Positions 2,061 through 63,810 of a stretch of 64,000 nt of DNA are shown piece by piece. How positions within the stretch are numbered: position 1 is the first letter of the stretch; the number at the start of each line of letters is the position of its first letter. The notes under the pieces are model-generated. The model ran no database searches. It was given only the letters and a program-made list of their open reading frames with translations, and was not told where the DNA came from. A program made the position numbers and the translations under genes. The stretch lies in IMG/VR virus record IMGVR_UViG_3300049043_000067, positions 269-64,268 of that record; one strand, written 5' to 3'. Source of the stretch: a virus (taxonomy: Duplodnaviria > Caudoviricetes).

Positions 2061-2086
2061 AAAAAAGAGGGGGCGCTAGCCCCCTC
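2061..2086 (-). terminator. intrinsic terminator
   Basis: Minus strand GAGGGGGC-tagc-GCCCCCTC followed by TTTTTT, just after the stop at 2094. Confidence 0.75.
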
Positions 2087-2093
2087 GTCGCTG

Positions 2094-2321
2094 TCAGAAG
2101 TAGAGCGGGGTGCACCGCTGTGTCGTCGCCTCGAAGGGCAACTTCATTGCCCTGATCGCCGCCTTCGCTGCGGCCTCCGTCTTGTATTGGTTGCGCCGCC
2201 CCTTTGCTTTGTGCCGGGCACCGATCTCGGCCTGTTGCTCGGCACGTTCCGCCTTCCGGCTGTATTCCTGAAAAGAAATCGGGCTCTCGATCCTGAAGAA
2301 GTCGCGTCCTGCATTGATCAT
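2094..2321 (-). CDS. small hypothetical protein
   Basis: GGAGG RBS and ATG at 2321 within ORF 2094..2393. Confidence 0.55.
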   Translation of the reverse strand: MINAGRDFFRIESPISFQEYSRKAERAEQQAEIGARHKAKGRRNQYKTEAAAKAAIRAMKLPFEATTQRCTPLYF

Positions 2322-2485
2322 GTGGTCCTCCGTTGGTCTCGTCACGAGACCCCTGAAATGTAAACAACTAATTGCCAAAAGTAAACAGGACAAATTGTCG
2401 CAGGTAGATCATGTTTGAGTGAAACGTGACAGGGATTTCCGTCACGTCTCGTTAGTATTAATACTTTCGAGAGCCGCCGCCGGTG

Positions 2486-3169: not shown

Positions 3170-3214
3170 TGGTGTCTCCTGTTTTTGTTAGATGTTACGA
3201 TCATTTTTTAGCGT

Positions 3215-3268
3215 GCTGCGAGCGCAGCGGATGGGGCAGGGAGTTACCCTGCCCACACCGCTAGGCTC
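3215..3268 (-). ncRNA. repeated intergenic RNA hairpin motif A, copy 3
   Basis: GAGCCUAGCGG-[GGGCAGGG/CCCUGCCC]-CCGCUGCGCUC-GCAGC; same architecture as the copies at 4694 and 6863, with compensatory changes. Confidence 0.7.
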
Positions 3269-4679
3269 AGATGTCGGCCGTGTTGATAGTGATCACGGTG
3301 CCGTAGGAGGGCTGTTGCGCACAACCCGTGCGGGCATCGACGGCGACCCAGATCAGGTCACGGTCGAAGTCAGGTGCGGGCGGGATGCCTGCTTCGAGAT
3401 CCGTGAACACCAGCACCCGGTCACCCGGCAGCCAGTGCTCTGCGGCGAAGCTAAGCGCCGCGTGGAACGAGGTGCCACCGCCAGCCTCGTAGCGGTACTC
3501 GATCAGCTCGCCGGGCCCGAAGACCTCGGGCTCGTGTACGTTGTGATCGAATGGCGCGACGATGACGCTATCGGGAGAACGTCTCGCCGATGATGGCGTT
3601 CAGCTCAGCGACGTAGGCGTGCGTCACTGCCTCGCTGATTGATCCTGACTTGTCGATCAGGACGATCAGCTTGCCAACCCCATCGCGTACCGGGGCAGGC
3701 ATGCGCCACGTGCTCAGGCGGCGCGGCAGCCGGGCGTAGGTGTATTCCCGGATGTTCGCGCCCTTGCTCAGCGTGTTGCGCAGCACCGCGCGCCAGTCCA
3801 CCCGGCTCGTGGACAGGTTGGAGACAGCCTTGCGCAGGCTGTCGCTGGCGGTCCCTGCCATCGTCGCCTCGTGCAGGGCGCGCTGCGTCAGCTCGGCGGC
3901 CTCGGCGATCACGCGGTCAGCCTCCTCATCGGAGACGTCGGCGGGCTCGACCTGACCCCAGCCCTGAGCGAGACCAGCCAGAGGATCCTGTGGTTTGTCA
4001 CCGGAACCTTCGGGCTGCTTGTCGTCCGGCGCAGAACCCTCACCTTTGCCGCCGGGCTGTTCGCCGTCGGGCTCCGGCGCAGAACCCTCGCCTTTGCCGC
4101 CGGGCTGTTCGCCCTCGGGCTTGTCCTCGGGCTTGTCCTCGGGCTTGCTCTCGGGCTTGCTCGGCGGCGCGTCTTCCTGCATCGCGTTGTAGATTTCTTC
4201 CCACGACGCGTGCCGCAGGGCCTCGATGCGTGCGGCGGGCCACTTCAGCTCGGCCCCGACCTTGTCGATGGTGACGCAGTCAGCCGGTGGCCGACCGACA
4301 CCGTCGTCGATCAGGATCTGGTTGATTGCGCAGTCCATCGCGATGTTGCACCGTGTCCTGTCGCGGTTACCGAACCTCACGTGATGCGCGAGCAGCGGGT
4401 GGAAGGCCTCGTGGGCCAGTACGAATTTACGCTCTTGCGGCGTCAGTGTTTCGAACCACGCCTCGCAGACGTACAGGTTCGCCTTCTCGTCTACGCCCGC
4501 CGTCCCCTCGGGCAGCGTGATGATCTCGCGCTGCATCAGGGCGGATGCGTAGAACCCGTGATCCCGCATGAGCTGGACCAGCGTGGCTCTCGACCGGCGC
4601 GAGGTTGCGCTGGCCGATCACGGTGCTGGTAATTTTTCGGCGGAACTGTATCAGCCGCCGCTGGATTGTAGCTTGTCAT
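3267..4679 (-). CDS. DUF2201-like metallopeptidase + vWA domain protein (frameshifted near 4600 and 3570)
   Basis: HEAFH zincin motif, NIAMD..IN, acidic Pro/Gly linker, IDKSGSI MIDAS motif; C-terminal GGGT and VFTDL lie in the shifted frame. Confidence 0.85.
4025..4113. repeat. 41-bp direct repeat (48-bp period) in the vWA-protein linker
   Basis: tccggcgcagaaccctc(a/g)cctttgccgccgggctgttcgcc at 4025 and 4073, encoding GEQPGGKGEGSAP twice. Confidence 0.85.
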
Positions 4680-4693
4680 TGTAGCCTCCTTTA

Positions 4694-4750
4694 GCTGCTA
4701 GTGCAGCGGGGAAGGCCCGCCTCGCGGCGGGCCCTCTGGCGCTAAACTAG
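4694..4750 (-). ncRNA. repeated intergenic RNA hairpin motif A, copy 2
   Basis: CUAGUUUAGCG-cca-GAGGGCCCGCC-gcga-GGCGGGCCUUC-cc-CGCUGCACUAG-CAGC. Confidence 0.75.
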
Positions 4751-5787
4751 GCGGACGTTTCCGGCGTTGAGCCAGTCACGGTAGGCCTGATGCTGAACGT
4801 AGTGCTGCTTCTCAGCGTCAGGTGCGGCGGCGTCGCGGTTCACGAGACTTTTTACGAAAAATATCTCGATCTCCTTGCTGGGCAGCCGCGACACGAACTT
4901 CAGTGCGTTGCCGAAGGTCCGGCGGTCAACGAGCTGGCTCAGCAACAGCGCAGTCACGTACTGAAGCTCGCGGCGCTCAGGCACGGCCACCGCGTCGGGC
5001 GTGGTCAGGATCTCCCGGACGTTGCCGATCTGGCTCCTGAGCTTACGGAAGCCGTTGAACGCGGCCGCCTGTTCGACACCGACCTGCCCGGCGATTGCCT
5101 CTGCCTCGATCTCATACGGCAGGCCGAGACCCACCGTCTGGGACACCGCGTCCCAGCTCCGCGGCGTGGGGTTAACATCGCGCTGCGGGTCGTAATTGTG
5201 CAGGGCCTTCTCGCCCGCATAGTCTATGTAAAACGTCACCGCTGGGTCGATCCCGGCCCCGGCAGCGTGCTCGACCCAGTCATCCTTGCCCACCTGCAGG
5301 CCCACAACCGTCAGGCGGTTGAGGTACTGGCCGGGCAGACGCGTCGAACCAGCGCGCGATTTCGCCGGGTTCCACGCCGAGACGATGGTCGTGAACCGTC
5401 CGATTTCGTGGTCACCTGCACGGCGGTCGAGGTGCAGGTTGGCGCAGGCGTTCTGCATCGACAGATGGGCCTGCCCGATTTCGTCGAGAAGCAGGACCCG
5501 CTTGTCGTCGCCTTCCGGCAGGAAGCGCGGGCGAAGCCACCCGGCATACTGACCGTCTGCGAACATGCCACCCGACAGGTCCGTCGGGTCGCGCATGCTG
5601 GCGAGGAAGGTCTGGGTGTATACCCGGACTTGCGGGCGGCCTGAGCCACCAGCGACGACTTGCCGATGCCCGGCTCACCCTCGACGCCGACGCGGATGTA
5701 ATCCAGCGCCGGGCCATTGCGCAGGGCGACCTGCTCGTTGTGCCGGATGACGCTGGTGAGGAACGCAGTGAAAGCCTTAGGACGCAT
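4742..5787 (-). CDS. MoxR-type AAA+ ATPase (frameshift near 5600-5640)
   Basis: Walker A GEPGIGKS (ORF 5311..5787); Walker B LLLDEI, sensor N and TPRSW (ORF 4742..5596); adjacent to the vWA gene. Confidence 0.9.
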
Positions 5788-5819
5788 TGCTTAGTCTCCT
5801 TTTTGTTTCTGTGATGTTC

Positions 5820-5874
5820 GGCCATCATCAGGCTGCACGTTATGCAGCGACCGGATTAACATCCGGTTTCGGCC
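5820..5874 (-). ncRNA. hammerhead ribozyme, type II
   Basis: Minus strand GGCC-GAAA-CCGGAU(guua)AUCCGG-UC^-GCUGCA(uaacg)UGCAGC-CUGAUGA-u-GGCC; complete core with one extra U; GUC site, cleavage predicted between 5849 and 5848. Confidence 0.9.
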
Positions 5875-5945
5875 TTGTAAATTAGTGACTTCCGTCTGTC
5901 AACTCAGGCGGGGATAAGGTGGAGAGGTCACCCTCCCCACCGCGA

Positions 5946-6845
5946 TTACCTGAGGAGCGCCGACATCAGTCCCGACGCTTTGGTAAGTGCATCTGTCCGG
6001 ATAGTATCGGACAGTTTCAGGTGCTCGGCGTCTACCGCGCCCAGCGCTTCCATCTCGGCGCAGACCTTGTCAAACTCCGCGTCACCCAGAAAATTGAGCG
6101 ACCGGCATATCCCAGCAATCTCACGGACATTGCTGACCGTAGACTGCCAGAACGCGCCCTCGGTCCGGATCCCGGACGGCGCGGTCGGATCCGCCACCTG
6201 CTTGTACCGGCCGACCGCCTCGACAAAGCGCTGCAGGACCGCAATGGCGCGGTCCCGGGCGTCTTGCTGGCTTTCCCTGAAGGTTGCCCTCGATCTCAGC
6301 CTGCAGGTCCAGCCGCATCGCGGCAGCCTCATCGGCAGCCAGCGCAAGGCGGAAGTCTTCGTCAACGTCGGCGACGGGCATGAACCCGACGCGGCAGTCG
6401 AACAGGCTGCGCACCTGATCTTCGTCCGGCCATTGGTGTCCGACGTAGGACTGCAGCCCGTTCAGCCGTGCGATGGCCTCGGCGCGGATCGTCGCATACT
6501 GGCCGACGAAGCGGTCAACCGTGGCCCTCCCATTCGCCGACGGCAGCGGCCAGTTCCGCCTCCACCTGCTTCACCGCGGGCATAGGGCAGGATCCTCACA
6601 CCGGCGGCTGCCCACGGCGCGCTGTAGTGTTCAACGACGCGGCGCACACGCTGGGCGTGCTTCGCGAGGGGCTTGAGGTAGTCCTCAGGTACCAGCCGCA
6701 CGACCGCGTTGACGGTGCGGTCGGAGGCTCCCTTGTCCCGCCTCGACCTCGGCGGACAGGCCGCGCGATGTCTTTTTGAAGGACGGGGTTCTCGATGCGC
6801 GACGTACACAAGGCACGCGCGCGACTGCAGGTCCATCTTTGTCAT
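5946..6845 (-). CDS. DUF3150-like protein (several frameshifts)
   Basis: Fragments ...HYSAPW...GVRILP..., ...FMPVAD..DFR..., ...LNFLGDAEF...LKLSDTIR; sits directly upstream of MoxR/vWA, a typical context for this family. Confidence 0.65.
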
Positions 6846-6862
6846 GTCTTAGTCTCTCATTG

Positions 6863-6921
6863 GCTGCGCTAGTGCAGCGGGGAAGGCCCGCCCTAAGGCA
6901 GGCCCTCTGACGCTAGACTAG
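6863..6921 (-). ncRNA. repeated intergenic RNA hairpin motif A, copy 1
   Basis: CUAGUCUAGCG-uca-GAGGGCCUGCC-uuag-GGCGGGCCUUC-cc-CGCUGCACUAG-CGCAGC. Confidence 0.75.
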
Positions 6922-7236
6922 CTCACGAGATCGACCCACGAGGTATCGACCGCGTTGCGTTGCTTTTCGATTTCGATATGCGCGGCGCGCAGGTCGATGA
7001 AGCGTGCGGCGTCTGCCAGCACGTCACGGCGGGATGTCCCCGGGTCCAGTACTGAGATGAAATGACCGGCCTTGTCGTGCACCCGGCCGCGCCAGCACGG
7101 CGCGCGTGTGTTGGATCCACCGGCCCCGGCTGACACCTGTGAAGGTGTCAACGCCTCGCCAGACGGTCACGACGCAGTCGCCGATGATGGCCTTGTAGGT
7201 GTCGGTTGCCACCTTCGTCACTGGTATTTTCGTCAT
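6918..7236 (-). CDS. hypothetical protein (one frameshift)
   Basis: AAGGAGA RBS and ATG at 7236; appears to continue into ORF 6918..7151. Confidence 0.55.
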
Positions 7237-7255
7237 GTTTGTCTCCTTGTTTGTT

Positions 7256-7309
7256 GGTCTCATCAGGCAGCGCCTTACGCTGCGACCGGGTTAAGCCCCG
7301 GTTTCGACC
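7256..7309 (-). ncRNA. hammerhead ribozyme, type II
   Basis: Minus strand GGUC-GAAA-CCGGG(gcuuaa)CCCGG-UC^-GCAGCG(uaagg)CGCUGC-CUGAUGA-GACC; perfect core; cleavage predicted between 7284 and 7283. Confidence 0.95.
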
Positions 7310-7548
7310 TTGTATGCAGCCACCTGCAGGACGGCGGCCTTTCTTTCGCCTCTGGCAAGATACTGAGCCTCCTCAGGCTCCTCAGTCAGGAATGCCTCCC
7401 GGATGTCGGTCGTGAACACGTTGTAGTTGGTCAGGTAGTGCGGCACGCCGCCGATCTTTTTCGTGATCGCGTATTGCCACCGTACCCCGGCGGCACAGGC
7501 TGCTTCGATCAGTGCGACGGCCAGAAAAATTGTTCCGTTGTTTTGCAT
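7291..7548 (-). CDS. hypothetical protein, first gene of the early operon
   Basis: 85 aa with GGAGA RBS; its stop codon lies in the stem III loop of the hammerhead at 7256-7309. Confidence 0.65.
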   Translation of the reverse strand: MQNNGTIFLAVALIEAACAAGVRWQYAITKKIGGVPHYLTNYNVFTTDIREAFLTEEPEEAQYLARGERKAAVLQVAAYKVETGA

Positions 7549-7560
7549 TTTCGTCTCCGT

Positions 7561-7612
7561 TGGTTTCGACCTGCCTCGGTCTCATCAGGCACGCGGCATC
7601 AGCGTGCTACCA
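7561..7612 (-). ncRNA. hammerhead ribozyme, type III
   Basis: Minus strand UGG-UA^-GCACGC(ugaugcc)GCGUGC-CUGAUGA-GACC(gaggca)GGUC-GAAA-CCA; loop1 UGCC is complementary to loop2 GGCA; cleavage predicted between 7608 and 7607. Confidence 0.9.
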
Positions 7613-7896
7613 GCCCAGCCGCCTTTGGAGCGGCTGGTACCCCTGCGGCGAGCCGGGCATTGCACGACGTCTGTGCAATCTCCCCGGCGACTTATGCCCC
7701 TCGTTTCCGTGGGCTGCGCGCAACACCGGAGAACCGGTGGCAGGTGGCTTTCCGCAGGTGACTCTCGCGTGCCTCTCGGCAGGCTTTCCCCCTGGTGGGT
7801 GCAGGCTCGCGTGGGATCCACGGTCTCGGCCAACCCTAGCTGCAACCCGGTCCCTGTAATCCCGCCTGTCGGCTAAACAGTCCGTCGCTGCAACGA
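7608..7896 (-). ncRNA. ~290-nt structured leader RNA of the early operon
   Basis: No credible ORF; many nested stems (UGCC-gaga-GGCA, CACCGG/CCGGUG, AUUGCAC/GUGCAAU within GCCGGG/CCCGGC, CCUGCGG/CCGCAGG, CCAGCCGC/GCGGCUGG) between the promoter and the hammerhead. Confidence 0.6.
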
Positions 7897-7902
7897 GATC
7901 AG

Positions 7903-7931
7903 AACTTAGGGCAGGTCTTGCCAAAACTCAA
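7903..7931 (-). promoter_or_regulatory. sigma70-type promoter of the early operon
   Basis: TTGAGT-17bp-TAAGTT on the minus strand. Confidence 0.55.
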
Positions 7932-8084
7932 CAGGGTATAGATGCGGCAGGGTGTCGCACCCCTGTGCAGGTCTGGAATGTCAGTGAAATCAGACAGATA
8001 CCAATGGAACGACCGCGCGGGGCGGGGTATGCTGCGCAGGTAAACGCTGGCCGGGACAGGCAGCGCAGGCAGATGAGGTGCAGG

Positions 8085-8691
8085 ATGACAGCGCGGAAAC
8101 GCAGGCAGGACGCGGCAGACAGGCTGCAGGGGATCGTGGATGATGCTAGCAACAAGTTACTAGTACTGAAGGGGCCAAAGCGACGGCTCACTGGAGCCGG
8201 AGCGCGAGACATTGAGGGGCAACCCGTCAACCTAGGCAACCTCACGGCAAGGCAGGAAGTGATGGCTGAGGCAGTAGCCAGCGGCCGGACAGGCATCGAC
8301 GCCTACCGCGATCGCGTTTGATTGCCCGACAGCCAGCGACAAGACGGTGGGCAGGAAGGTGAGCAGCCTAATGGGTAAGCCAGCCTTCAGGCAGGCTGTG
8401 GAGCGGCACAGGCAGCGGATAGCAGAAGAGTATCAGCGGGTGTTCCATCGGACCGCGCGCGACATCACGGCGGCGTTGTGGCGGGAAGCGGAGAGCGGGG
8501 AAAATGGCGGAGCGGTGCGGGTGCGAGCGCTTGAACTACTGGGGAAGGATCGGGGCATGTTCTCCGAAAAGGCGCAGAAATCCGAGGGTAAAACGCTTTC
8601 GAGTGAGGAAGTGGAGCAGCAGATTCGGGGAATGTTGGAGACGTATCTCGGAGGAAATGCCTTGATTATCAACGACTTAGAGAAGAAGTGA
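8085..8691 (+). CDS. terS: terminase small subunit (frameshift near 8315)
   Basis: LTARQEVMAEAVASG..GIDAYR HTH start and RVRALELLGK..GMF.EK C-terminal motif typical of TerS. Confidence 0.75.
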
Positions 8692-10614: not shown

Positions 10615-12144
10615 GTGGTCAGCAACCCGATCAGCCCTCACCGCCTGACCACCGCTATGCTATCGGCCCTGCCGATAGCCGAGCGGGAGCGGCTGCTTGA
10701 CCTGCTGAAACAGCTCGAAGACGCAAAGAACAGGGAGAAGGCGAGGACAGACTTCATCGCCTTCACCAAAACGATGTGGCCGGGGTTTATCGCCGGTAAG
10801 CACCACCGGATAATGGCTGACGCCTTCGAGAAGGTCGCCACCGGCAAGAGCAAGCGCATCATCATCAATATGGCTCCCCGACACACGAAGTCGGAGTTCG
10901 CCAGCTTCTTGCTGCCCGCGTGGTATCTGGGAATGTACCCGGACAGGAAGATCATTCAGGCCTCGCACACCGCCGAGCTTTCTGTGAATTTTGGCAGAAA
11001 GGTCAGGAACCTAAGTGGGATCTGATCAGTACCAGACCGTCTTCCCGAACACGCGCCTTCAGCCTGACAGTCAGGCCGCCGGGCGATGGGCGACAGATAT
11101 GGGCGGCGAGTACTTCGCCGTTGGTGTCGGCGGCGCGCTGGCCGGTAAGGGTGCGAACCTGCTGATCATCGACGACCCGCACACCGAGCAGGACGCCATC
11201 TCCGGGATGACGTCGTCTGATGTATACAACAAGGCCTACGAGTGGTTTACCACCGGCCCCCGACAGCGTTTGCAGCCCGGTGCCGCCGTCATCATCGTGA
11301 TGACGCGCTGGTCGAAGCTGGATCTGACTGGTCGATTGCTCGAAAAAGCATGAAAGACTCAGGCACGTCTGAGTGGGAAGTCATTGAATTACCTGCGATA
11401 TTGCCGTCTGGCGACCCGCTTTGGCCTGAGTTCTGGACGAAAGGCGAGCTTGAGGCGGTCAAGGCCGACATCCCGGTCAATCGCTGGAATGCCCAGTACA
11501 TGCAGCAGCCGACCTCCGAGGAAGGCGCGATCATCAAGCGTGAGTGGTGGAAGCTCTGGGACAAGCCCCGCCCGCCGAAGTGCGACAGCGTGATTGTGTC
11601 GTGGGACACGGCATTCGAGACCAAATCCCGCTCAGACTACTCAGCCTGCACGACGTGGGGCGTGTTTCAGGTCGAGGGCAAGAACGGGAAGATGCACCAG
11701 AACCTGATCCTGCTGGACGCCTTCCGGGAGAAGATGGAGTTCCCGGAGCTGAAAAAGGTGGCCAAAAGGCACTACGACTTCTGGAACCCCGACGCCCTGA
11801 TTGTCGAAGCGTCCGCCGCCGGTATCCCCCTCATACAGGAGATGCGTGCCTACGGCATCCCGGTCGAGGATCACCGCGTGAGCTGGGCGCGTGACAAGAA
11901 GGCCCGCGTCAACGCCATCAGCGACATGTTCCAGTCCGGCTTCGTCTGGTATCCGGACCAGCGCTGGGCGCATGAAGTGATTGAGGAGTGCGCCGAGTTT
12001 CCCAACGGCCAGCACGATGACTACGTCGATACGGTATCTCAGGCCCTGCTGCGCGCGCGCAAGGGCGGGCTGCTGCTGGCGTCCGACTATGAATTTGGTG
12101 ACGTGCCACTCGATGACATGTCCATCCCGTTAAACCCATATTGA
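10615..12144 (+). CDS. terL: terminase large subunit (two frameshifts)
   Basis: INMAPRHTKSE Walker A, LLIIDDP Walker B, VMTRW, SWDTAF nuclease Asp and HDDYVD across ORFs 10615, 11015 and 11242. Confidence 0.95.
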
Positions 12145-54061: not shown

Positions 54062-54214
54062 CGCGACCTCTTCGAGGGCGATGCTGAGCAGACTGGTCGC
54101 AAAGCGCACAGCCTGCTCAGGCGTCATCGTGTGCAGGACGCAGTCGTGGTTCTCGGCAATCACGATCTCCGCCCGCCCCTGACCAGTGGCCCGGGGATAC
54201 ACAATCAGCATTAC

Positions 54215-54673
54215 TTATCCTCCTTCGTACCTCGCAGCGGGATCATGTGGTAGATCTCCGCCCACTGGTACGCCTTGCACGCGACCTTCACCGGCGGGCG
54301 GGGTGCCGCGCCGAAGATGTATCCGGTCACGAACACGCGCGAAATAACAACGATCTTGAATGCAGTGTCGTTCATTTTTGGTCTCTCCTGTCTGATGAGG
54401 TCCGTGCTCTCCGCCGACCTGTTTCTTCTTCCTAGGCGCTGAACTAAGCGGGTAGTCCGTACCCTGCGGGTCACCTTCCTCGTACACGGCATTGTGCCTG
54501 ATCCCTTCGATCATGCTCATCGCTGCGCGGCGTGCCGCCGAGCGGAAGCTGTACTCGATTGATGACCGGGCCAGTATAGACCCGACCGGGTTAATAAATT
54601 CCCAAAGCCATCCGTCATCACCGCGGCGATAAACGAGCCTGAACATCTTTTTGTTCGTGCGGGTCTTTCTCAC
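54215..54673 (-). CDS. YegP/DUF1508-like small protein (probably read through into the next gene by a frameshift)
   Basis: F....R..DGW.W.F....G.ILARS...Y..RSAARRA. Confidence 0.5.
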   Translation of the reverse strand: MRKTRTNKKMFRLVYRRGDDGWLWEFINPVGSILARSSIEYSFRSAARRAAMSMIEGIRHNAVYEEGDPQGTDYPLSSAPRKKKQVGGEHGPHQTGETKNERHCIQDRCYFARVRDRIHLRRGTPPAGEGRVQGVPVGGDLPHDPAARYEGG

Positions 54674-55518
54674 AGTTTCTCAAGCCTCTCGATTGCGTTG
54701 GTTGTCAGCTTCGATTTGTTGGCTGACTTGATGTACTTCATCGTCGTCGTCGTTGACTGGTGCCCGGTGACCGACATGATCTCCGGCATCGAGCAGCCTG
54801 CCTCGGCGAGGCGTGTGGCGCAGAACTTCCTGAGGCCGTGGAACGGCTTGCTCACCCCGATCTTCCGGCAATACCTCATGTAAACCCGGTAGAAGGAATG
54901 CTTCGTCACCTTGCCGAAAAGCGGCTTGCTCGACAGCGCGCGCTTCACGAGGTCGAGGTTCGCCGTCGAGGCGGTGAGCGGCATGTCAATCACCGCGCCC
55001 GTTTTGGACTGCGTGTACGCGAGATGTACACGGTCATTCTGCTTGTAGAAATTCAGGTGGTTCAGCGAGAGGATGTCGCCGCGACGCATGCCGGTGCCTG
55101 CCGCAAACAGGACGATGTCACGCATCACCCCGAACTCAGGGCCAGAGATCGCCTTGTCAACGTCCTGTGGCGTCCACGGTTCCCACTCGCCGACAATCTT
55201 CACGGCGCAGCGCGACCACGGCACGCCGCCGGTGATCTTGCCGCGCTTGCGAGCGTAGTTGATTGCCGCAGACGCGAGGTTCATGACCTGAGACTTGACG
55301 CCAACAGGCAAGGTCATGTTACCGATGTCGTCAGGCGACAGCGCCGCCGCGCTGCGGTCTCCGTAAGAACTTATCAACGTCGTCGCCGCGCGTGCGTAGA
55401 TGCGGCGCGTCTCAGGTGCGAGTTCAAACCACCTCACGGCAAGGTAGTGCCTCGTTATCGCGCTGACAGATCCGGCCTTGTCGGTGTCTGTAATTTGTAG
55501 CTCATCAGGTATGGTCAT
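54670..55518 (-). CDS. tyrosine recombinase / integrase-family protein
   Basis: Catalytic set TGMR(R), SK(T), HGLR, GH, Y (KYIK). Confidence 0.9.
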   Translation of the reverse strand: MTIPDELQITDTDKAGSVSAITRHYLAVRWFELAPETRRIYARAATTLISSYGDRSAAALSPDDIGNMTLPVGVKSQVMNLASAAINYARKRGKITGGVPWSRCAVKIVGEWEPWTPQDVDKAISGPEFGVMRDIVLFAAGTGMRRGDILSLNHLNFYKQNDRVHLAYTQSKTGAVIDMPLTASTANLDLVKRALSSKPLFGKVTKHSFYRVYMRYCRKIGVSKPFHGLRKFCATRLAEAGCSMPEIMSVTGHQSTTTTMKYIKSANKSKLTTNAIERLEKL

Positions 55519-55530
55519 AGTTCCCTCCTC

Positions 55531-56034
55531 CTAGCAGTGTATGTTACCGAACCCGCCGTGCTCGAACGCCGAGACGGGTATGGTCATCATGATCCCCTTG
55601 TCCTGAGGATCGTTGCGGTCAACGCGACCGCCAAAGAAAAACCCCGGCTTGAAGCCAGCCTCGCTCTTGTAAGGCGAACCCGGGTAAAAGATTTTGGGCA
55701 GGTCAAGCCACCTGACCTCGCCGTGGCAATCGCGAACGACAAGCCACACCTGCAGCCCCATCATTACGTGAATGGCCAGCACGCAGAACTTGTCGCAATC
55801 AATGAGCGCGCCACCGTATCGGCTCATCTTCTCCCACGACCAGTCATCCGCCCGGCACTTGACCTCGATCACGCCGATCACGCGCCGCGATCCGCGCTGG
55901 ATCATCACGTGATCAATGGCCGAGAACTTCTTCGGCACCTTCTCGTAGTCGTATCCCTTCTCGTCGGCGAACAGCCGGGCAACCTCGGCCTCGCGATCAA
56001 TATCAGCCTGCGTCTCGTATCCGTCCGACCTCAT
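55531..56034 (-). CDS. PD-(D/E)xK nuclease-family protein
   Basis: E..VA...ID.V......IEVKCR; GGR.DRNDPQD. Confidence 0.7.
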   Translation of the reverse strand: MRSDGYETQADIDREAEVARLFADEKGYDYEKVPKKFSAIDHVMIQRGSRRVIGVIEVKCRADDWSWEKMSRYGGALIDCDKFCVLAIHVMMGLQVWLVVRDCHGEVRWLDLPKIFYPGSPYKSEAGFKPGFFFGGRVDRNDPQDKGIMMTIPVSAFEHGGFGNIHC

Positions 56035-56465
56035 TAGCGCAGCTCCGTTTCGAACTGGTTAACCAGTTTCATGAATTTGTCCCGCGCAGACTGATTAACC
56101 TTAAGATCAGCCCGGCTGGTTATGTTCAGGTATCGGCGCAAGGCGGCGGCTGCGTGGTCTTCGCTCACGTCATCGGCCAGACCGTTGTTCAACAGCCAGA
56201 CCTGAAACTCCTGACGCGCGCACAGCATCGCCGCCATCGTCACCACCTTGCGGGCCTTGTCGGCTTCCGGGTTAGGAATTACAGACCCGTCATCGCCAGT
56301 GCGCACCATTGCCACAACGTACCGTGCGCCAACCCAGTCACGGAGCAGGCTTTCAGGCACGTCGTTGGGATGGATGCTCAGCTTGAGGACGTACCCGTTT
56401 TTGTCTTGCGTGATGCTGAGCTTGACGGCTTCGAAATTGACGGCGTCATCGCTGGGGTTTGGCAC
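56034..56465 (-). CDS. conserved hypothetical protein
   Basis: 143 aa; FQ.WL...LRRYLNITSRADL..N..AR motif. Confidence 0.65.
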   Translation of the reverse strand: MPNPSDDAVNFEAVKLSITQDKNGYVLKLSIHPNDVPESLLRDWVGARYVVAMVRTGDDGSVIPNPEADKARKVVTMAAMLCARQEFQVWLLNNGLADDVSEDHAAAALRRYLNITSRADLKVNQSARDKFMKLVNQFETELR

Positions 56466-56589
56466 TCCTGTATCTCCTTCTCAATGAGCGCGGCTGTGCG
56501 CTTCAGTATGTTGTTGGCCCTGTTTGCAATCTCTGCGTCGAGTGGTGCGAGCTTGTCGCGACGATCACCAACCAGCCACATGACAGTCT

Positions 56590-56943
56590 TCAGGTGCTCT
56601 TTGACTTCTTCCAGTCTCTGTAAGTTGTCTCTGCCCATTTGATTGCGTCTATCCCCCTGAGCGACCACCACAGCATCTCATCTATGCCACCCTGATGCAG
56701 GTCCATATGGCAGCGGTGGCACAGTGGCACCGCCCACTTGTCGCTGCTCTTCAGTCCCATACCCTTCTCACCCACCCGCTGAATGTGATGCGCTGATGGG
56801 TAAGGGCTCCGACACGCGAGGCACGGAGAACTCCTCACGTGCCGGAGATACGCAGGCTCAGATCGCTCCGAGCCCGCCTTGTTAGAACGGGATCTCGTCA
56901 GACGAGCCACCGCCAGCTCCCTGTCTCGGGGTGTCAGCCTCAA
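56590..56943 (-). CDS. DUF968-like (HNH-fold) protein
   Basis: YLRHVR..PCLAC...AHH...GMGLK.SD.WAVPLCHRCH..LH; start uncertain. Confidence 0.75.
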   Translation of the reverse strand: MRLTPRDRELAVARLTRSRSNKAGSERSEPAYLRHVRSSPCLACRSPYPSAHHIQRVGEKGMGLKSSDKWAVPLCHRCHMDLHQGGIDEMLWWSLRGIDAIKWAETTYRDWKKSKST

Positions 56944-57157
56944 CCTTCAGGCTCAGGAACTTATTGCCGTTGTTTGAGGTCTTGCTCCACGCGACGACAC
57001 GCACCTTTGCGGGCTGCTTGCCGTTGACCAGACCGGCCAGATGCCGGACCAGTTCAGGCGACAGGACGATGTCACCGCGCAAGTCTGGGGCCTTGTCGCT
57101 GGTCTTCTTGTTGTTGGTAAACAGTGCGCCCGAGTCGGGCCTCGTTTCGAAAGCCAT
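56882..57157 (-). CDS. small single-stranded DNA-binding protein
   Basis: GALF.N..K....PD..G...AW.K......FLSL and acidic DEIPF C-terminal tail. Confidence 0.75.
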   Translation of the reverse strand: MAFETRPDSGALFTNNKKTSDKAPDLRGDIVLSPELVRHLAGLVNGKQPAKVRVVAWSKTSNNGNKFLSLKVEADTPRQGAGGGSSDEIPF

Positions 57158-57858
57158 AGTCTCTCCTCCTTCAGTTCTGCCTCGCGGCGGGTAAACAGTT
57201 CCTTGATTTCGTTGAACGATTTCTCGTTCGACTTCTTCAGGTCGGCGAACGCTGCGCTGTTCGCTGTCCAGAATTTCATAAGGTCATCGACCGTGCTGCA
57301 CTCAGGCAGGAAGGTCTTGACCACCTCGACAAACAACGGCTCGCTGCCGCTCTTGCCGGGCACCTCAACGACAGCGTCGCCAGCCTGCGTGGGGATGGCA
57401 ACCTCGACGGTCTCCTTCACGGGCTCCTTAGGCACGACCTTCAGGTGCTCGCGCTTCGCCTCGGCGATGTCGATCTCGTTGGCCGATGCGTATTCACCGC
57501 CGTGCAGACCGAGTGCCGCCAGCGCGCGACCGATTGCCGATGTCTCGGCGTTCTCGATGGCGCTGGTCTGGTTCACGTAAGACTTGCTCCGCCATTCCTC
57601 GGCGTGACCTGTCGCGACAATGCTGCCTTCGCCGTTGCGGATGACAGCCTTGACCAGCACAGGCTCGTCGGCACTGTTCGGGTTATAATTCACCAGCTCG
57701 GTGGTGATCCGGTAGTAGTCGCCAGACACACGACGCAGCGCCTCGATGCGGTCGGCCACCACCGTGTAGAGCTTGCCGCCCTTCTGCTTGATGCCGCGCT
57801 TTTCCTTCAGGCTCTGGATCATGTCCAGCATCTGGTTGATGTTTTCCGTGTTACTCAT
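56953..57858 (-). CDS. single-strand annealing protein-like recombinase (true end probably near 57160)
   Basis: GKLY..VADRI...ATGHAEE.R...VN.TSAIENAETSAIGRALAALG..G.EYASA.E; lies between the exonuclease and SSB genes. Confidence 0.65.
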   Translation of the reverse strand: MSNTENINQMLDMIQSLKEKRGIKQKGGKLYTVVADRIEALRRVSGDYYRITTELVNYNPNSADEPVLVKAVIRNGEGSIVATGHAEEWRSKSYVNQTSAIENAETSAIGRALAALGLHGGEYASANEIDIAEAKREHLKVVPKEPVKETVEVAIPTQAGDAVVEVPGKSGSEPLFVEVVKTFLPECSTVDDLMKFWTANSAAFADLKKSNEKSFNEIKELFTRREAELKEERLWLSKRGPTRAHCLPTTRRPATRPQTCAVTSSCRLNWSGIWPVWSTASSPQRCVSSRGARPQTTAISS

Positions 57859-58064
57859 GCTCGGTCTCCTTTTAGGGCAAGGTTTGCAATCTCAACGCAC
57901 GTGCCCGCCGTGTGTTTGCCGCTAGCGATGTTAGTCAGCGCCGCGCGCAGGCGCTCGATCTCGTGCGCAGCTTCCAAAATTGCGTTAGCGAGACCGTCGC
58001 GACCCTCTTGACGCTGTTGCCACGCTAGAATTTTTGTCCGCTCAGCGATTTCGCTGAAGAGCAC
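57855..58064 (-). CDS. small hypothetical protein
   Basis: EAAHEIERLRAAL motif; ATGA coupling to the next gene. Confidence 0.5.
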   Translation of the reverse strand: MLFSEIAERTKILAWQQRQEGRDGLANAILEAAHEIERLRAALTNIASGKHTAGTCVEIANLALKGDRA

Positions 58065-58078
58065 CGACTTGATCCACC

Positions 58079-58459
58079 CTATAATTCCTCTTCGCCGGAG
58101 CCGTTGCCGTAGCCGTAGCCGTCGCCGTAGCCGGAGCCGTTGCCGTCGCCGTAGCCGTTGCCGCTGCCGTCGCCGTCGCCGTAGCCGTAGCCGTCGCCGT
58201 AGCCGGAGCCGGAGCCGTTGCCGTCGCCGTCGCCGTCGCCGTTGCCGTCGCGCCGTAGCCGGAGCCGGAGCCGTAGCCGGAGCCGGAGCCGTTGCCGTCG
58301 CCGTAGCCGGAGCCGAAGCCGGAGCCGTAGCCGGAGCCGAAGCCGAGAGCCGTAGCCGGAGCCGAAGCCGGAGCCGGAGCCGGAGCCGAAGCCGTTGCCG
58401 TCGCCGTCGCCGTAGCCGGAGCCGAAGCCGGAGCCGGAGCCGTCGCTTAGTGTGCCCAT
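58079..58459 (-). CDS. Gly-X repeat protein (G-S/D/Y/N/F)n, with compensating indels
   Basis: Tandem GGC-NNN hexamers; the central RLRLR stretch is the same repeat read out of frame. Confidence 0.75.
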   Translation of the reverse strand: MGTLSDGSGSGFGSGYGDGDGNGFGSGSGSGFGSGYGSRLRLRLRLRLRLRLRRRQRLRLRLRLRLRLRRDGNGDGDGDGNGSGSGYGDGYGYGDGDGSGNGYGDGNGSGYGDGYGYGNGSGEEEL

Positions 58460-58729
58460 TTCGCGGCCTCGATAGAGGCGACTGCCTCAGGGGTGCAGTC
58501 GATAATTTCGATTGCTTCCGTCAGAGTGATTGAGACGGGCACCGCGACGCGGGACTTTTTATCGTCAAAACCGCTCGTTGCGATCTCGCTGAGGGTGTTG
58601 GCTCCCGACCACGACCAGATCCGCCGCGAGCGGACAAGATCGACCTCGCGCCCTTCGCGGCGGACGCAGGTATCCGAAATGGACACCAGCGGAATACGTT
58701 CTGACGATTACTGCTTTGTGGTCAGTCAT
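58447..58729 (-). CDS. DUF6948-like Sm-fold protein (frameshift near 58668)
   Basis: VIVRTYSAGVHFG...RRIWSW.GA.TLSEIA..G...LTEAIEIIDC...A..SI. Confidence 0.75.
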
Positions 58730-58733
58730 TGGT

Positions 58734-59073
58734 TCAGTCTCCTGTGAAAGTTGGTCTGCTGTTTTCAGTTACCGAGGATTCCTCGGCAGCTGGGGCTTGA
58801 CAGTCATGCTGCGTCCAATCCTTTAAAAGTTGGTCACGGGTTTTTCTCCCGCTTTCTCTCTCAGCCTGCATCCCGTTTTCCAGCCCGGTCAGATAAACGG
58901 ACAGGATAGCTTCGTGGAACGCACAGCCTGTGTTGCTTGCCCTCGTAAACACATCGAAGGCAAGGTTTCCCAAATGCTCCTTCATGCCGTCTGGCATGGC
59001 CACGCGGTCGAAGCCGTCAGGGCTTCATGCCCCGGCGCATGAGTTGCCAATCAACTATGTGTTTGTGGGCCAT
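58734..59073 (-). CDS. hypothetical protein (possible frameshift)
   Basis: Extended RBS before the ATG at 59073; ORF 58734..59003. Confidence 0.45.
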
Positions 59074-59499
59074 ACCTCCCCCTCCTCCTCGCCGCTGGCC
59101 GCTGCCGTCGCCAATCTTATTGACCATTAGTTGAGATCGCCACATCCGGCGGGATCAACGGCAAGAACATAGCCCTCCCACGCTCGGGCATCACCCTCGG
59201 CCCTTTTGAATGACCGATAGACGCCGACCGCCATATCATGTCCATTCCTGTCTTTGCAGATCACGACAAATCGCATAACTGATGCCTCCCTCCTCCGCTG
59301 CCGTCACTAACGACCGTTATCTCGGTCACTGTTGTCGTTACTGCCTAAACCAATGGCCCGCCGGACTATTGCCAGCGTGTTGCGCTCGCTGCGCCGGTCA
59401 CTCGGGGACCGGCTCAGTGTCAGCACCATCGACCGACCCGTCGCCGGATCACGTCACCCTGACCACCGCGTGCTTGTTTTCCCTTAGAACTTCGACGCT

Positions 59500-60296
59500 T
59501 AGGTTTAGGTCCGTCAGGAACCTCAGTCGCTTCTTTTCCATCCTGCTCCTCCTTAAAGCGCGCCCACTGCGCGCAGGTAATCCTGCACGTCGCAGTAGTT
59601 CCTGCAACGGATCGGGTCCCCATCCCTGAGCCAGCGATCCTCATCGCTGCACTCAGGTCATTCTTCGTCCATATGAAGGGCGGACGACGCCTGCATCAGG
59701 CCCATCACCCGCTCCTCGACCCAGCGCGTCTGGTCCTCGTAGGACCACACAGGGATCTCGGCCATCACCACCGGTGCCGGTGGGTAGACCTTGCGACGCG
59801 TCACGTCAGTGAGCCGCCAGTCCCTCAGGATGGCGCAGACATGCAGGCTCTCGACCTCCAGCCCCTTCTCCTTGCGGAGCAGGTCGGCGTAGGCATTGAG
59901 CTGCTGTTCCCACTCCGGCTTCGGTCGGCTGACCGAATAGACCGACGTGAACTTGTAGTCGATGATCCCGACCTTGCCGTTCTGGTGACGTTGCAGGTCG
60001 ATCTGACCTGAGATGCGCATGCCGTGGACCTCGGTGTGGATCCGCTCCTCGACGACGTGATCCTCGGCGGTCGCGCCTTCGAGGATCTTGTGAATGTTCG
60101 AGCCCATCAGGGCCCAGAACCTGTCGCTCAGGTCCTCCTTCGCCGCGATGGCCTCGGCATGCTCAGACCGCAGCACCGCGATTTTCGCGGGGCTAACGAG
60201 TTGTGTTACACTCCAGTGGCTCGCGCCTTTGGAGTATTGCTGACGCCCAAACAGGGCGACGAAGGGTGCCGGGAGATTGTGTCTGTTGCTGATCAT
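59500..60296 (-). CDS. PD-(D/E)xK (Cas4-like) exonuclease (frameshift near 59660)
   Basis: SVTQL, G..IH..LE, ISGQIDL, IIDYK, QLNAY; C-terminal RC..YC....C in the shifted frame; 3' end approximate. Confidence 0.8.
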
Positions 60297-60302
60297 GCGG
60301 AC

Positions 60303-60331
60303 AGGTTATTGAAGGACATTCCGAATGTCAA
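60303..60331 (-). promoter_or_regulatory. promoter of the recombination operon (leaderless) with a palindromic operator
   Basis: TTGACA-17bp-TAACCT, then 6 nt, then the ATG at 60296; palindrome GACATTC-c-GAATGTC at 60315-60329. Confidence 0.7.
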
Positions 60332-60385
60332 CTGAGTCGGGCAGAATTATTTCAGGCCGCACAAGGCGCCGGTGGTGTCAGGCTG

Positions 60386-60784
60386 GTGATATTTGGGGAG
60401 CCAGCCAGCAAGGCGAACAGCCGGATCGTGCGGGTCATTCGCGGGCGGGTGCTGAATATCAAGAGCCAGAAGGCTCAGGGATACAAGGCCCAGTTCCTGA
60501 AGCAGTGCCCGGTTATTGATCCGATGTTAACCGGTGACCTGTCGGTAACTATCAGCATATACTACGCATCACGCAGGCCTGATTTGGACCCGAGCCTGAT
60601 ACTGGATCTTATGCAGGAGAGGATTTACCTGAATGACCGGCAAGTCAAAGAGCAGCACCTCTACTGGGGCCTCGACCCGGAGAACCCGCGCGCCGAAATT
60701 CTTGTCGAACAAAGAGCTGAAGCAGCACTACCGAAAGAAATACGCGGAGCGAAAGGTCGAGGAAAAGCGCGCGCTACTGGCTAG
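60386..60784 (+). CDS. rusA: RusA-like Holliday junction resolvase
   Basis: GEPASKANSR...RRPDLD...ILD.MQ..IYLNDRQV......DPENPRAEI. Confidence 0.8.
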   Translation: MIFGEPASKANSRIVRVIRGRVLNIKSQKAQGYKAQFLKQCPVIDPMLTGDLSVTISIYYASRRPDLDPSLILDLMQERIYLNDRQVKEQHLYWGLDPENPRAEILVEQRAEAALPKEIRGAKGRGKARATG

Positions 60785-61013
60785 CGTGCTTATTCAGGCG
60801 ATCAAGGACGCGGGATGGGGCGGTGTCCGGGAACGCAACGACGTCATCAGGTGGCTGTCGAAGATAGACGACTTCCGCCGCATCGTTGAGCCGCTCGGCC
60901 TCAATGCCGAGGATGTCCGCATGCAAATAGCTAATTTGTTCAGGGTCTCACCGGCGCTGTCGGTGCATTACGCACAGCAACTGATCGCTCGGATAAAGAA
61001 AAATATCGGGTAG
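60633..61013 (+). CDS. hypothetical protein
   Basis: L..SVL.QAIKDA...WL...DF..I....G motif; start uncertain. Confidence 0.55.
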   Translation: MTGKSKSSTSTGASTRRTRAPKFLSNKELKQHYRKKYAERKVEEKRALLASVLIQAIKDAGWGGVRERNDVIRWLSKIDDFRRIVEPLGLNAEDVRMQIANLFRVSPALSVHYAQQLIARIKKNIG

Positions 61014-61107
61014 GCATGCCACCGTCAAACAGCACACCCACCCGATAAGTTGCCGTTACCACAACGGACGGAGGAGACTACACATGATCACGGTTGGTTA
61101 GGCCGTG
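60995..61107 (-). ncRNA. candidate ~110-nt sRNA with an anti-SD/anti-AUG seed
   Basis: Upstream promoter; seed UCAUGUGUAGUCUCCUCC (61087-61070); terminal 17-bp hairpin (61047-61004, five G-U pairs on this strand) followed by UUUUUCUUU. Confidence 0.5.
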
Positions 61108-61112
61108 GTATT

Positions 61113-61141
61113 TACATACCATCGAGCCGGTAGTACCGCAA
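61113..61141 (-). promoter_or_regulatory. promoter for the candidate sRNA
   Basis: TTGCGG-17bp-TATGTA with an extended -10 TG. Confidence 0.45.
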
Positions 61142-61386
61142 CAGGGCAAGCAGCTCGTTAACTGACTCTTTCTTGAATTTGTTTTTTGTTAAGCATGATC
61201 CAGTCCCGGCTCGGAATGCCGTTGGATCTTTCCACGCTTACCGTCGCTGATCCCGAGCTGATCGTCGTAGAACATCACAGCTTCTACAGGGCCGTAGATT
61301 TCAGATCTTTCTGACGTATGGTTTACACGCTGGTACAAGGCCCGACGAGTTAGGCTTCAGCATCTCAAGACAATCCTGTTCCCGAC

Positions 61387-61468
61387 GCTGTTCTCAGCGC
61401 TGTGCTCAGCAGATGCTTCGCTTGTGGCGAAGCATCGACAGCCAACCGACAGCCAAACCGACAGCCAA
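61387..61468. repeat. cluster of direct repeats and palindromes (candidate origin)
   Basis: GCTGT(T/G)CTCAGC x2 (61387, 61399); 10-bp inverted repeat at 61412-61436; CGACAGCCAA x3 (61436, 61447, 61459). Confidence 0.7.
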
Positions 61469-61494
61469 AAAAAGAGCGCAGCCCCGAAGCTGCG
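61467..61494 (-). terminator. intrinsic terminator
   Basis: CGCAGCT-tcgg-GGCTGCG-ctc-TTTTTTT on the minus strand. Confidence 0.7.
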
Positions 61495-61960
61495 TTTCTT
61501 CAGACCAGAGGTCTTCGGAAAACTTGCCTTCTCTGTACGCATTTCACAGAACAGCCAGTGTAATCTGCAGATAGATCCGAGGGACAGAGCAGACACACTC
61601 CCCCTTCCGGAGAAGCGTGTCAGCGTGACCTGCAGATGAGTCGTCGGTCCGTCGCTTTAACACAATCACACAAGGATTTAAGGGGCGGTCACCCTGCCCC
61701 GCAGTACGGTCTCCGGCTTTTCCTGCTCACGTCTGACGGTGCACCCGGGTACCGTGTGATTAGCATCCCAGATGGCTACCCGGGCTGTACGGGTTCTTTT
61801 TTCAGGCGTTGCCGTCCGGAAGTCCGAGCCCTCAGGCCCTCGACCGGCCGGGTTTCCCGGGGGTTGTCGGCTATGACGTGTCGCAGCAAGACCCTGCCGC
61901 GCCACCACAGTCCGTCCCGTTTCTCACAGATCCGGCGGCCAGTCAACTGTTTCAGATGAA
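61467..61960 (-). ncRNA. candidate ~490-nt structured non-coding RNA
   Basis: No credible ORF; stems with GNRA loops and minus-strand G-U pairs (e.g. GACACGCUUCUCC-ggaa-GGGGGAGUGUGUC); ends in a terminator; 5' end approximate. Confidence 0.55.
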
Positions 61961-62033
61961 ACAGTTTCAGTTGTAACTAAATTTCACAAGCATTTATGTG
62001 GTAACGGGATGTTAGCTGGTCCTCGTTACTCTG

Positions 62034-62062
62034 TTGACATCCGGTAGCCGCACGGCAAGATT
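62034..62062 (+). promoter_or_regulatory. promoter of the primase-helicase gene
   Basis: TTGACA-17bp-AAGATT. Confidence 0.45.
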
Positions 62063-62114
62063 GCCCTTGCCTGTTGCCGCTGTTCGCCCCAGTATCAGGA
62101 CCCCGCAGGAACAC

Positions 62115-63810
62115 GTGATCCCGTCAGAAATCTCCCGTCTTGTCCCCCATTCCGTCGGCCAGTGGCGTGCCGCCGTGTGCCCGTGGTGTGCCAAGACCCG
62201 GAGCCCGAGGCACCGCCGGGTCCCGACCCTGAGCGTGGTCAGGAACCCGGACGAATCGGTGGGGTGGCATTGCAATCACTGCGGCGAGAAGGAAGAGGCG
62301 AGATGTTTCAGGAAGAGGTTACGGTTAAGCCTGTGCCCCGCAGCCAGCGTCAGGAACGAACGGATCAGGCGCTATCGTTTCTGGGGCAGCGCGGTATCTC
62401 CGAGCCCGTCGCAAAGAAGTACGGATGCTATCAGGTCAGCCGGTATTTCACAGGATCCGGACGTGAAGAACCGGCGGTGGCGTTCCCCGTCCTGTACAAG
62501 GGGGCCGAGGCCAGCGTTAAGTACCGGGCGGTATCGGGTAAGCACTTCGCCGCGTCTGGTTCGCCGCCCGTTCTGTTTCGGCCTGAACCTGCATGACCCC
62601 AGCAACAAGACCGTGATCATCTCTGAAGGTGAGATCGACGCGCTGTCGTGGGCCGAGGCAGGTGTCAGCAACAGCTTCTCGGTACCGACAGGGGCATCCG
62701 TGTCCGAGCAGGAGAAGGGCTGGCTGTGGCTGAGCCGCGAGGTCTTCGACCAGTCGGAGCGCATCATCCTCGCCCTCGACAACGACGAACCCGGGCAGGC
62801 CGCCGCCGAGGAGATCGCCCGGCGCATCGGCAAACACCGGGGTCTGGCGTGCGAATACCCGGACGGGTGCAAGGACGCGAACGACGTGCTCACCCGGCAC
62901 GGCAAGGACAGGCTGGTTAAAGTTTACGAGAGCGCCCAGCCGTGGCCCGTGACCGGGCTCTACGACACGAACCACTACACCCAACAGGTCTACGACCTGA
63001 TCGAGAAGGGCGACGACGCCGGGCTCAGCACCGGCCTGACCGGCATAGATGAGATCTATCGGGTAGGCACGGGACAGCTAGTTATGGTTACCGGCATCCC
63101 CGGCTCAGGCAAGAGTCGAGTTCATCGACCAGTTGCTGGTCAACCTCGCCGAGCAGAACGGATGGAAGGCCGCGCTTTGCTCGTTCGAGAACAGTCCGCC
63201 GGAGCACATCAGGAAGCTGGTCGAGAAGCGAGCGCGCGCCACCGCCCCGGCCGCGGCCGAGCTGGACAAGGTTATTGATTGGGTCGCTAAGCATTTCTTT
63301 TTCATCCGTTTCGATGACGGATCACCCGCAACCATCGAGGCAATCCTTGAGCGTGCCCGGGTGGCGGTGCTGCGGTATGGGATCCGGTCGCTGGTCATCG
63401 ACCCGTACAACTACATCACCCGCAATCAGGATGTCAGTGAGACTTTGTACGTATCTGATGCCCTGACCCTGTGTCGCCAGTTTGCGGCCGCCACCGAGTG
63501 CAACGTGTACTTTGTGGCTCACCCGCAGAAGATGGCAAGATCTAACGGATTATCCTATCCGACACCGACAGGTTATGATATATCAGGATCGGCTGCGTGG
63601 TTTGCAAAAGCTGACAGTGGGTTGACTGTCGGCCGGTCCGATGTGCCCGGGTTCTCTGTGGTTACTAGCTGGAAGTCTAGGCACAAGCGTCTCGGCAAGC
63701 TCGGCATTGCAAACGTCGCCTACGACGTCAAGACCGGGAGGTTCTCGGACGCCGATGAACTGCCACCGATAGTTGTAAACACGGATGATGACGATGGGTT
63801 CAACTTGTAG
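62115..63810 (+). CDS. primase-helicase (Zn finger + TOPRIM + DnaB-like; T7 gp4/Twinkle-like; frameshifted)
   Basis: CPWC...WHCNHC; ISEGEIDALS, LALDNDEPG, KDAND; TGIPGSGKS; VIDPYN; VAHP; YDISGSA.W..KAD. Confidence 0.92.

Follow-up and report, generated by a model that had tools for sequence, protein, structure and literature searches.

The locus considered here raises the question of whether a short intergenic stretch of a phage genome encodes, on its minus strand, an RNA that blocks translation starts elsewhere in the genome, or whether its complementarity to such starts is the mirror image of a ribosome-binding site on the plus strand. The first possibility had been put forward in a preliminary description, in which a trans-acting sRNA of ~110 nt, made from a promoter at 61141-61113, shuts off a leftward "early" module by means of a seed that evolved to block the starts of a vWA-like gene, an ATPase gene, the genes starting at 6845 and 1489, and others.

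The virus record is a single contig of 64,268 bp with 59.8% GC, and the window, i.e. the whole stretch of 64,000 nucleotides that was analysed, spans almost all of it. Encoded are an integrase (54670-55518, minus strand), pieces of a terminase and a portal, an exonuclease, RusA and a T7-gp4-like primase/helicase starting at 62034. Since an integrase is present, the phage is, judged by its gene content, temperate. Leftward genes form two modules, module A (~650-8300), with a DUF2201/vWA-like protein, an ATPase and small ORFs, and module C (54211-60296), from the exonuclease through to the integrase. The genes outside these modules run rightward, and the AT skew tracks these blocks. The gene labels "MoxR" and "DUF3150" used in the preliminary description found no match in a Pfam search; for 4742-5596, the PHROGs annotation is ATPase. 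Across the window, neither tRNAs nor, at the gathering threshold, Rfam families were detected. Several genes are split between frames, namely those for the primase/helicase (62034-63810), the DUF2201/vWA-like protein (4569-4679), the ATPase (5311-5787/4742-5596), and the large terminase and DUF6948 (listed spans 10615-12144 and 58686-58727), which suggests that the assembly contains indel errors or that the phage is decaying.

Terminator and orphan start site behind orf126

The plus-strand gene orf126 ends with its stop codon at 61013, and from there to at least 61635 there is no coding signal. "orf107" (61636-61959) appears to be non-coding too, and the gap may extend to the primase start. 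The features at the left end of this gap are:

60994-61003, minus strand: U-run TTTTTCTTTA of an intrinsic terminator, inside the last codons of the plus-strand orf126
61004-61047, minus strand: terminator hairpin with an 18-bp stem, an 8-nt loop and several G-U pairs that form on the minus strand only
61052-61066, minus strand: small hairpin of 5-6 bp between seed and terminator, -4.4 kcal/mol
61070-61087, minus strand: anti-RBS "seed" of 18 nt, UCAUGUGUAGUCUCCUCC, the plus strand of which reads GGAGGAGACTACACATGA, i.e. SD, spacer, ATG and A
61084-61101, plus strand: orphan five-codon ORF (MITVG*) behind the plus-strand SD, with no coding signal after it in any plus frame

The terminator-like hairpin that had been described on the minus strand is well borne out. 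It folds with -28.2 kcal/mol on the minus strand (z -5.9) and with -16.6 kcal/mol on the plus strand, because several of its pairs are G-U on the minus strand only, and the U-run that follows it is absent on the plus strand. Its U tail, given as UUUUUCUUUA, corresponds to that of the rho-independent terminator of an sRNA gene. In our genome-wide scan of both strands for hairpins with a T tail, it is the most stable site (rank 1 of 97). The arrangement with orf126 is compact and convergent, as the stop codon of this gene (61011-61013) lies in the stem and its last codons lie in the T-run and the left arm. The terminator and its strand bias, like the complementarity treated below, are observed features of the DNA. 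The small hairpin at 61052-61066 does not reach significance by itself, as 26 of 200 shuffled sequences fold equally well.

The seed lies ~20 nt upstream of the terminator stem and is the reverse complement of plus-strand positions 61070-61087. That the plus strand reads here as an RBS with a five-codon ORF had already been noted as a caveat, and it does: GGAGGAG, a 7-nt spacer and ATG ATC ACG GTT GGT TAG, with the ATG at 61084-61086 and an anti-SD duplex of -9.5 kcal/mol. Strong SD, ATG and a very short stopped ORF are features of lambda bar-type minigenes, and their presence in the sequence does not imply that function. The motif belongs to a GGAGAC type, which many of the phage's genes use. 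In the genome there are nine instances of GGAGAC with an ATG within the next 4-7 nt, and by our own reading of the ORF lists the other eight sites are at or near gene starts; the claim that GGAGAC precedes the ATGs at 3169, 7236 and 7548 is correct. A hidden plus-strand gene behind the motif was considered and rejected, as no frame carries a coding signal in 61020-61400, and the same applies to a duplicated gene start, as no match longer than 11 nt exists elsewhere in the genome.

These observations bring in a second explanation, by which the plus-strand SD and ATG are the functional or ancestral part and the minus-strand complementarity is a by-product. The motif could be the start of a lost gene at a mosaic junction, a lambda-bar-like minigene or a message-stabilising orphan SD; the terminator would merely end some leftward transcript, and the complementarity to other starts would follow from all of them being of the same start-site type. 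The position of the motif, 57 nt behind the orf126 stop, is where the start of a next gene would be expected, GGAGAC-ATG motifs predict real gene starts elsewhere in the genome, and several genes of this phage are disrupted. The identical 18-mer (GGAGGAGACTACACATGA) moreover heads a gene of 44 to 73 codons in all nine viral contigs that hold it. On the other hand, there are stops in all three plus frames within ~80 nt of the motif and no coding signal, so that any gene loss would have to be complete. This explanation also leaves unaccounted for why the strongest terminator of the genome, strictly of the minus strand, stands directly behind the motif between plus-strand genes. We consider it quite possible, if somewhat less than an even bet.

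The nine contigs with the 18-mer (L161-L169) belong to one uncultured viral family, in which it forms the start of a conserved small gene (MSPDLL...). This family appears, by sequence, to be unrelated to the present phage, as tblastx of four of the nine contigs against it gave no match.

It could also be that an SD-like, ATG-containing 18-mer has come to lie near a hairpin by chance and that there is no functional minus-strand transcript. Eleven of the 33 strong-SD ATGs in the genome are orphans, single seed matches of 9-11 nt are at chance level (E 2-34), and the candidate had been chosen post hoc out of 64 kb. Such a coincidence is nevertheless unlikely in view of the strand-biased stability of the hairpin with its T-run, the position within more than 600 bp devoid of coding signal, and the likeness to real starts that, as described below, extends to the level of the spacer.

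Predicted pairing with translation starts

The pairings that had been claimed for the seed do exist. With the vWA-like start, it forms 11 bp with one G-U plus 4 bp (-20.4 kcal/mol), with the ATPase ("MoxR") start a perfect 9 bp (-17.0 kcal/mol), and with the start at 6845 7+6 bp (-17.2 kcal/mol); the pairing with the start at 1489 has -16.5 kcal/mol. The further claim that pairing extends beyond a generic SD and AUG was addressed by a spacer control, in which UCAU and CUCCUCC were kept fixed, the seven middle bases were permuted, and the mean energy over 16 module-A starts was calculated. Only one of 139 permutations and none of 150 random spacers were as good as the seed, which places the claim above chance. 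For the four claimed targets, the energy of the seed was reached by none of the 139 permutations and none of the 150 random middles; at non-early starts the seed is unremarkable, with 118 of 139 permutations as good. The complementarity modestly exceeds anti-SD plus anti-AUG, and it follows from the permutation result that the plus-strand 18-mer shares spacer features (..GAC UA(C)A..) with module-A starts.

A different picture is given by controls that use the antisense of real starts. When the antisense of each of 114 predicted starts was tested as a pseudo-seed against the early starts, those of two (2321 and 57858) bound at least as well, which is in line with the by-product explanation, and the seed came third best of 115. 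By the mean energy of the best four targets, 37 of the 114 pseudo-seeds do as well, and none of the 114 separates early from other starts as sharply as the seed. The seed is thus not exceptional among antisenses of real starts. In a genome-wide duplex scan, sites internal to coding regions (-24.1, -23.4 and -21.7 kcal/mol) beat the best claimed target (-20.4 kcal/mol) and hence all the others, and the ATPase start is outside the 40 best sites.

The decisive point for a dedicated sRNA is specificity for module A, the "early" timing of which is itself inferred. In the hand-extended list of 114 starts, early starts pair better than others (-14.0 kcal/mol, n = 16, versus -10.0 kcal/mol, n = 98; p 9e-5), a list that is biased by including four starts taken from the preliminary description. 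After correction for SD strength and AUGA, an early effect of -2.6 kcal/mol remains (permutation p 4e-4). In this list the vWA-like ATG, which is at 4679, was entered as 4678, which leaves the energies unaffected and gives this start a window shifted by one base and a wrong AUG flag in the correction. With strong SDs only (9 early of 37) p is 0.011, and with AUG only it is 0.053. Full-length cofolding still favours early starts, more weakly (p 0.03), and ranks the main targets 15th (6845), 17th (vWA-like) and beyond the top 20 (ATPase) of 114. Of the four starts matched best in the same list, two are the integrase start (55518) and 57858, and its best ten also include 56034 and 9039.

A rule-based list was compiled from starts with ATG, an SD duplex of -7 or better, at least 25 codons, a positive coding score and the strand of their module (n = 34); the starts at 4679, 6845 and 7548 failed these rules and were dropped. 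Here module A (n = 8, -15.9 kcal/mol) is equal to the integrase-side module C (n = 9, -15.4 kcal/mol; p 0.67), module A does not stand out from the rest (p 0.14), and modules A and C together are matched better than the rightward plus-strand modules (p 0.02). The ranking of early starts above others, which had been named as a check on the model, is therefore seen with the hand-extended list and is lost with the rule-based list, in which the result comes near to early starts ranking no better than those of other genes. What the seed complements is thus a start-site class common to both leftward modules, with no specificity for an early regulon, and the data do not support a silencer dedicated to early genes. 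The specific contribution of the spacer, the sharp separation of early starts against all pseudo-seeds and the unpaired seed in a 119-nt RNA (see below) speak for the sRNA as it was first proposed, yet with the rule-based comparison, the ranks of its main targets, the strong matches outside module A and a promoter at background level we regard it as improbable.

There is a similarly slim chance that an RNA mimicking the anti-Shine-Dalgarno tail together with an anti-start codon collectively damps GGAGAC-type starts in both leftward modules, integrase and vWA-like/ATPase cassette included. In that case, the orphan "RBS" on the plus strand would be no more than the shadow of the RNA gene. For the most part, the value of this analysis is a cautionary one, as the reverse complement of any consensus RBS "targets" many gene starts; a regulon claim of this kind therefore calls for controls built from antisenses of genuine starts and for a start list free of bias.

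Module A contains further structured elements. It had been described as segmented by ribozymes, and the one hammerhead-like element that was checked (7558-7615, minus strand) matches the type III hammerhead ribozyme model over its full length, with 27.1 bits below the Rfam gathering threshold of 48.5 (E 4.3e-4 in a 181-nt search). This element, with CUGAUGAG, a GACC/GGUC stem II and CGAAAC, abuts the GGAGAC SD of the gene starting at 7548. CTGATGA motifs, with no model match, are also found upstream of the starts at 7236 and 5787. By our own gene calls, the ~750 nt upstream of the first clear module-A gene (7550-8300, minus strand) hold no convincing leftward ORF, and they may represent a long structured leader containing the hammerhead-like element. 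A GC-rich structured element of ~54 nt is present in two copies (4697-4750 and 6868-6920, both minus strand), the first immediately before the vWA-like start, the second upstream of the start at 6845. Its 19-nt core occurs exactly twice, versus 0.01 times expected, and has no Rfam match.

Promoters, extent and relatives of a possible leftward RNA

The features to the right of the seed that could start or delimit a transcript are:

61094-61122, plus strand: promoter-like site TTGGTT-17-TACCAT, score 8.04, 99.99th percentile, the best in the gap
61103-61140, either strand: imperfect inverted repeat (the "5' hairpin") of the same stability on either strand, overlapping the plus-strand promoter-like site at 61094-61122
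61113-61141, minus strand: promoter TTGCGG-17-TATGTA of the preliminary description, matched by ~0.2% of genome placements and missing from the consensus scan
61165-61192, minus strand: TTAACA-16-AAGAGT, the best minus-strand promoter-like site upstream of the seed, score 6.2
61189-61338, minus strand: 49-codon ORF with a TTG start and no SD, the sole weak coding signal in the gap (61200-61290), of no family
61467-61494, minus strand: two-way terminator-like hairpin with a minus-strand T-run, limiting the leftward unit to at most ~470 nt

The promoter originally assigned to the RNA does not stand out, as it lies at the 99.78th percentile of 639,650 placements, i.e. ~1,400 placements are as good. 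A consensus scan of 60000-62200 yielded two sites versus 1.0 expected, neither of them upstream of the seed; these scans used a sigma-70-type consensus, which may not be that of the host. No promoter motif common to the heads of the leftward modules was found, and only a 10-nt repeat recurs there. The inverted repeat had been said to pair better on the plus strand, which is not the case (-11.6 kcal/mol minus, -11.4 kcal/mol plus). The plus-strand site TTGGTT-17-TACCAT overlaps this repeat (GTGGTAT..ATACCAT) and could serve the replication genes as a rightward promoter combined with an operator. Transcripts from it would begin downstream of the SD and ATG motif, which argues against this motif being the functional part.

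A leftward RNA would have a length of about 110 to 470 nt. As seed and terminator lie too close together to accommodate a promoter between them, any RNA that ends at 60994-61003 would necessarily carry the anti-RBS stretch. How far this stretch would be accessible depends in the predictions on the start. In a 119-nt form (start 61112), the seed is predicted to be unpaired with a probability of 0.55-0.99; a start from TTAACA-16-AAGAGT would give an RNA of ~165 nt with a partly paired seed, and with starts at or beyond 61160, as computed for 61160 and 61200, 9 of the 18 seed bases are internally paired in the minimum-energy fold. If the 49-codon ORF is real, the seed is in its 3' UTR.

A search of RNA libraries gave three RNA runs and one DNA run, in none of which more than 14% of the sampled words were present. 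A single contig from an RNA library covers the site (60928-61084); it is unstranded, has a depth of 2 and extends 66 nt past the terminator. A terminated sRNA accounts for it less well than a plus-strand message, read-through or carry-over of DNA, and its crossing of the terminator is a further point for the by-product explanation. The contigs of these libraries are unstranded throughout, with a depth of ~2, and none of them covers 61116-61418, an absence that carries no weight.

Relatives close enough for a comparison of the non-coding DNA were sought by several routes. Blastn against phage records gave no DNA match, and no relatives were found with orf126 or orf107 in viral contigs, with orf126 in metagenome contigs or with orf126 or the exonuclease in prokaryote genomes. 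Relatives of the primase (80 loci kept of 193 and of 363 matches) have ~28-57% protein identity and are therefore too distant for this purpose. Among the databases searched, no relative was sufficiently close to provide covariation partners for the seed. Rfam searches at E up to 10 of 60300-62100 or 60980-61220 gave nothing relevant, and a permissive search with 241 nt gave only a chance-level miRNA match (E 1.4), with no homology to a curated family.

The reading we tentatively prefer is a leftward, probably non-coding RNA that exposes an anti-RBS stretch and acts as a cis-antisense RNA, perhaps also as a generic anti-RBS. It is the most likely of the explanations, and the by-product or relic of a plus-strand start is nearly as likely. 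The gene-poor control region from orf126 to the primase/helicase would give rise to a short leftward transcript with this stretch at its 3' end, and the strong intrinsic terminator, of the minus strand only and overlapping the orf126 end, would set this 3' end. The RNA would carry the mirror of the orphan plus-strand RBS and ATG of the GGAGAC type, it would be perfectly antisense to any rightward read-through message from RusA-orf126, and it would cover the orphan RBS in cis, in a way comparable to lambda OOP or P22 sar. As the site matches the consensus start of the phage, weaker pairing (9-15 bp, -15 to -20 kcal/mol) would also be possible with GGAGAC-type starts of both leftward modules. 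Against this preferred reading, there is no promoter above background, and the opposite-strand "gene" has only five codons, so that a cis target of obvious value is missing; the making of the RNA, its start site and any regulatory effect are inferred.

Other repeats mark the same gap. Three tandem copies of CGACAGCCAA, 11-12 bp apart (61436-61468), stand beside a perfect 10-bp palindrome (61412-61436) and also adjoin the two-way terminator-like hairpin (61477-61494); one RNA-library contig has an extra copy of this tandem repeat. The 10-mer CCGACAGCCA recurs perfectly once, at 8326-8335, where module A and the late genes diverge. These repeats (CGACAGCCAA/CCGACAGCCA) are candidates for the binding site of a phage regulator or for an origin iteron. 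Two 24-nt imperfect inverted repeats (61040-61063 and 61997-62020; 79% complementary, with a perfect 11-mer CCGTTACCACA) flank the ~1-kb gene-poor region, and by a rough estimate they are not significant alone.

Comparison with known systems

Lambda OOP is a 77-nt antisense RNA, and P22 sar (68/69 nt) and the c4 RNA of P1/P7 block translation by covering an RBS, c4 at sites away from its own coding position (PMC12197685). Both sar and c4 have one defined target gene (ant and icd-ant, respectively) within an immunity circuit, and for OOP, sar, c4, DicF, PreS and VpdS the targets described are either one phage gene or genes and sRNAs of the host (PMC12197685). Like OOP, the present candidate would be a short leftward RNA of a temperate phage. 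It would lie beside replication genes, end at an intrinsic terminator that reaches into the 3' end of a convergent upstream gene, and act by pairing with the opposite-strand message. It differs from OOP in that the overlap with orf126 is only ~20 nt, an equivalent of the promoter pO was not found, there is no sequence or Rfam relation, and the main complement is an orphan RBS instead of a regulator gene. Like sar and c4, the candidate would cover a ribosome-binding site. Unlike in these systems, the opposite-strand ORF has five codons with no coding signal after it, so that the sar-type covering of the RBS of a functional opposite-strand gene was not found here, and the trans targets are predictions that extend over more than one module.

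RsaE/RoxS and LhrC are sRNAs with C/U-rich seeds that mask Shine-Dalgarno sites; they are conserved bacterial genes with mapped promoters and validated targets. The candidate would share with them an exposed stretch of the CUCC type, a mimic of the 16S rRNA tail with the ability to pair with many SDs, and it differs by its additional anti-AUG and spacer match. The lambda bar minigenes and the STAB-SD type of orphan SD have, within a phage or an mRNA leader, a strong SD with a few-codon minigene or no gene behind it. The plus-strand reading of the locus likewise has a strong SD with no real gene behind it, whereas the best plus-strand promoter-like site here is downstream of the motif, and neither peptidyl-tRNA drop-off nor mRNA stabilisation is implied.

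T4 RegA is a protein repressor that binds the initiation regions of many phage messages and lowers their translation. The likeness is a functional analogy only, one phage factor for many messages, with a protein in T4 and a candidate RNA here. If the RNA exists and blocks a class of starts, it would add a multi-target, RNA-only translational control to the development of temperate phages. Should the collective damping of GGAGAC-type starts hold, a temperate phage would possess a global translational switch specific for one sequence class, with an RNA as the counterpart to RegA.
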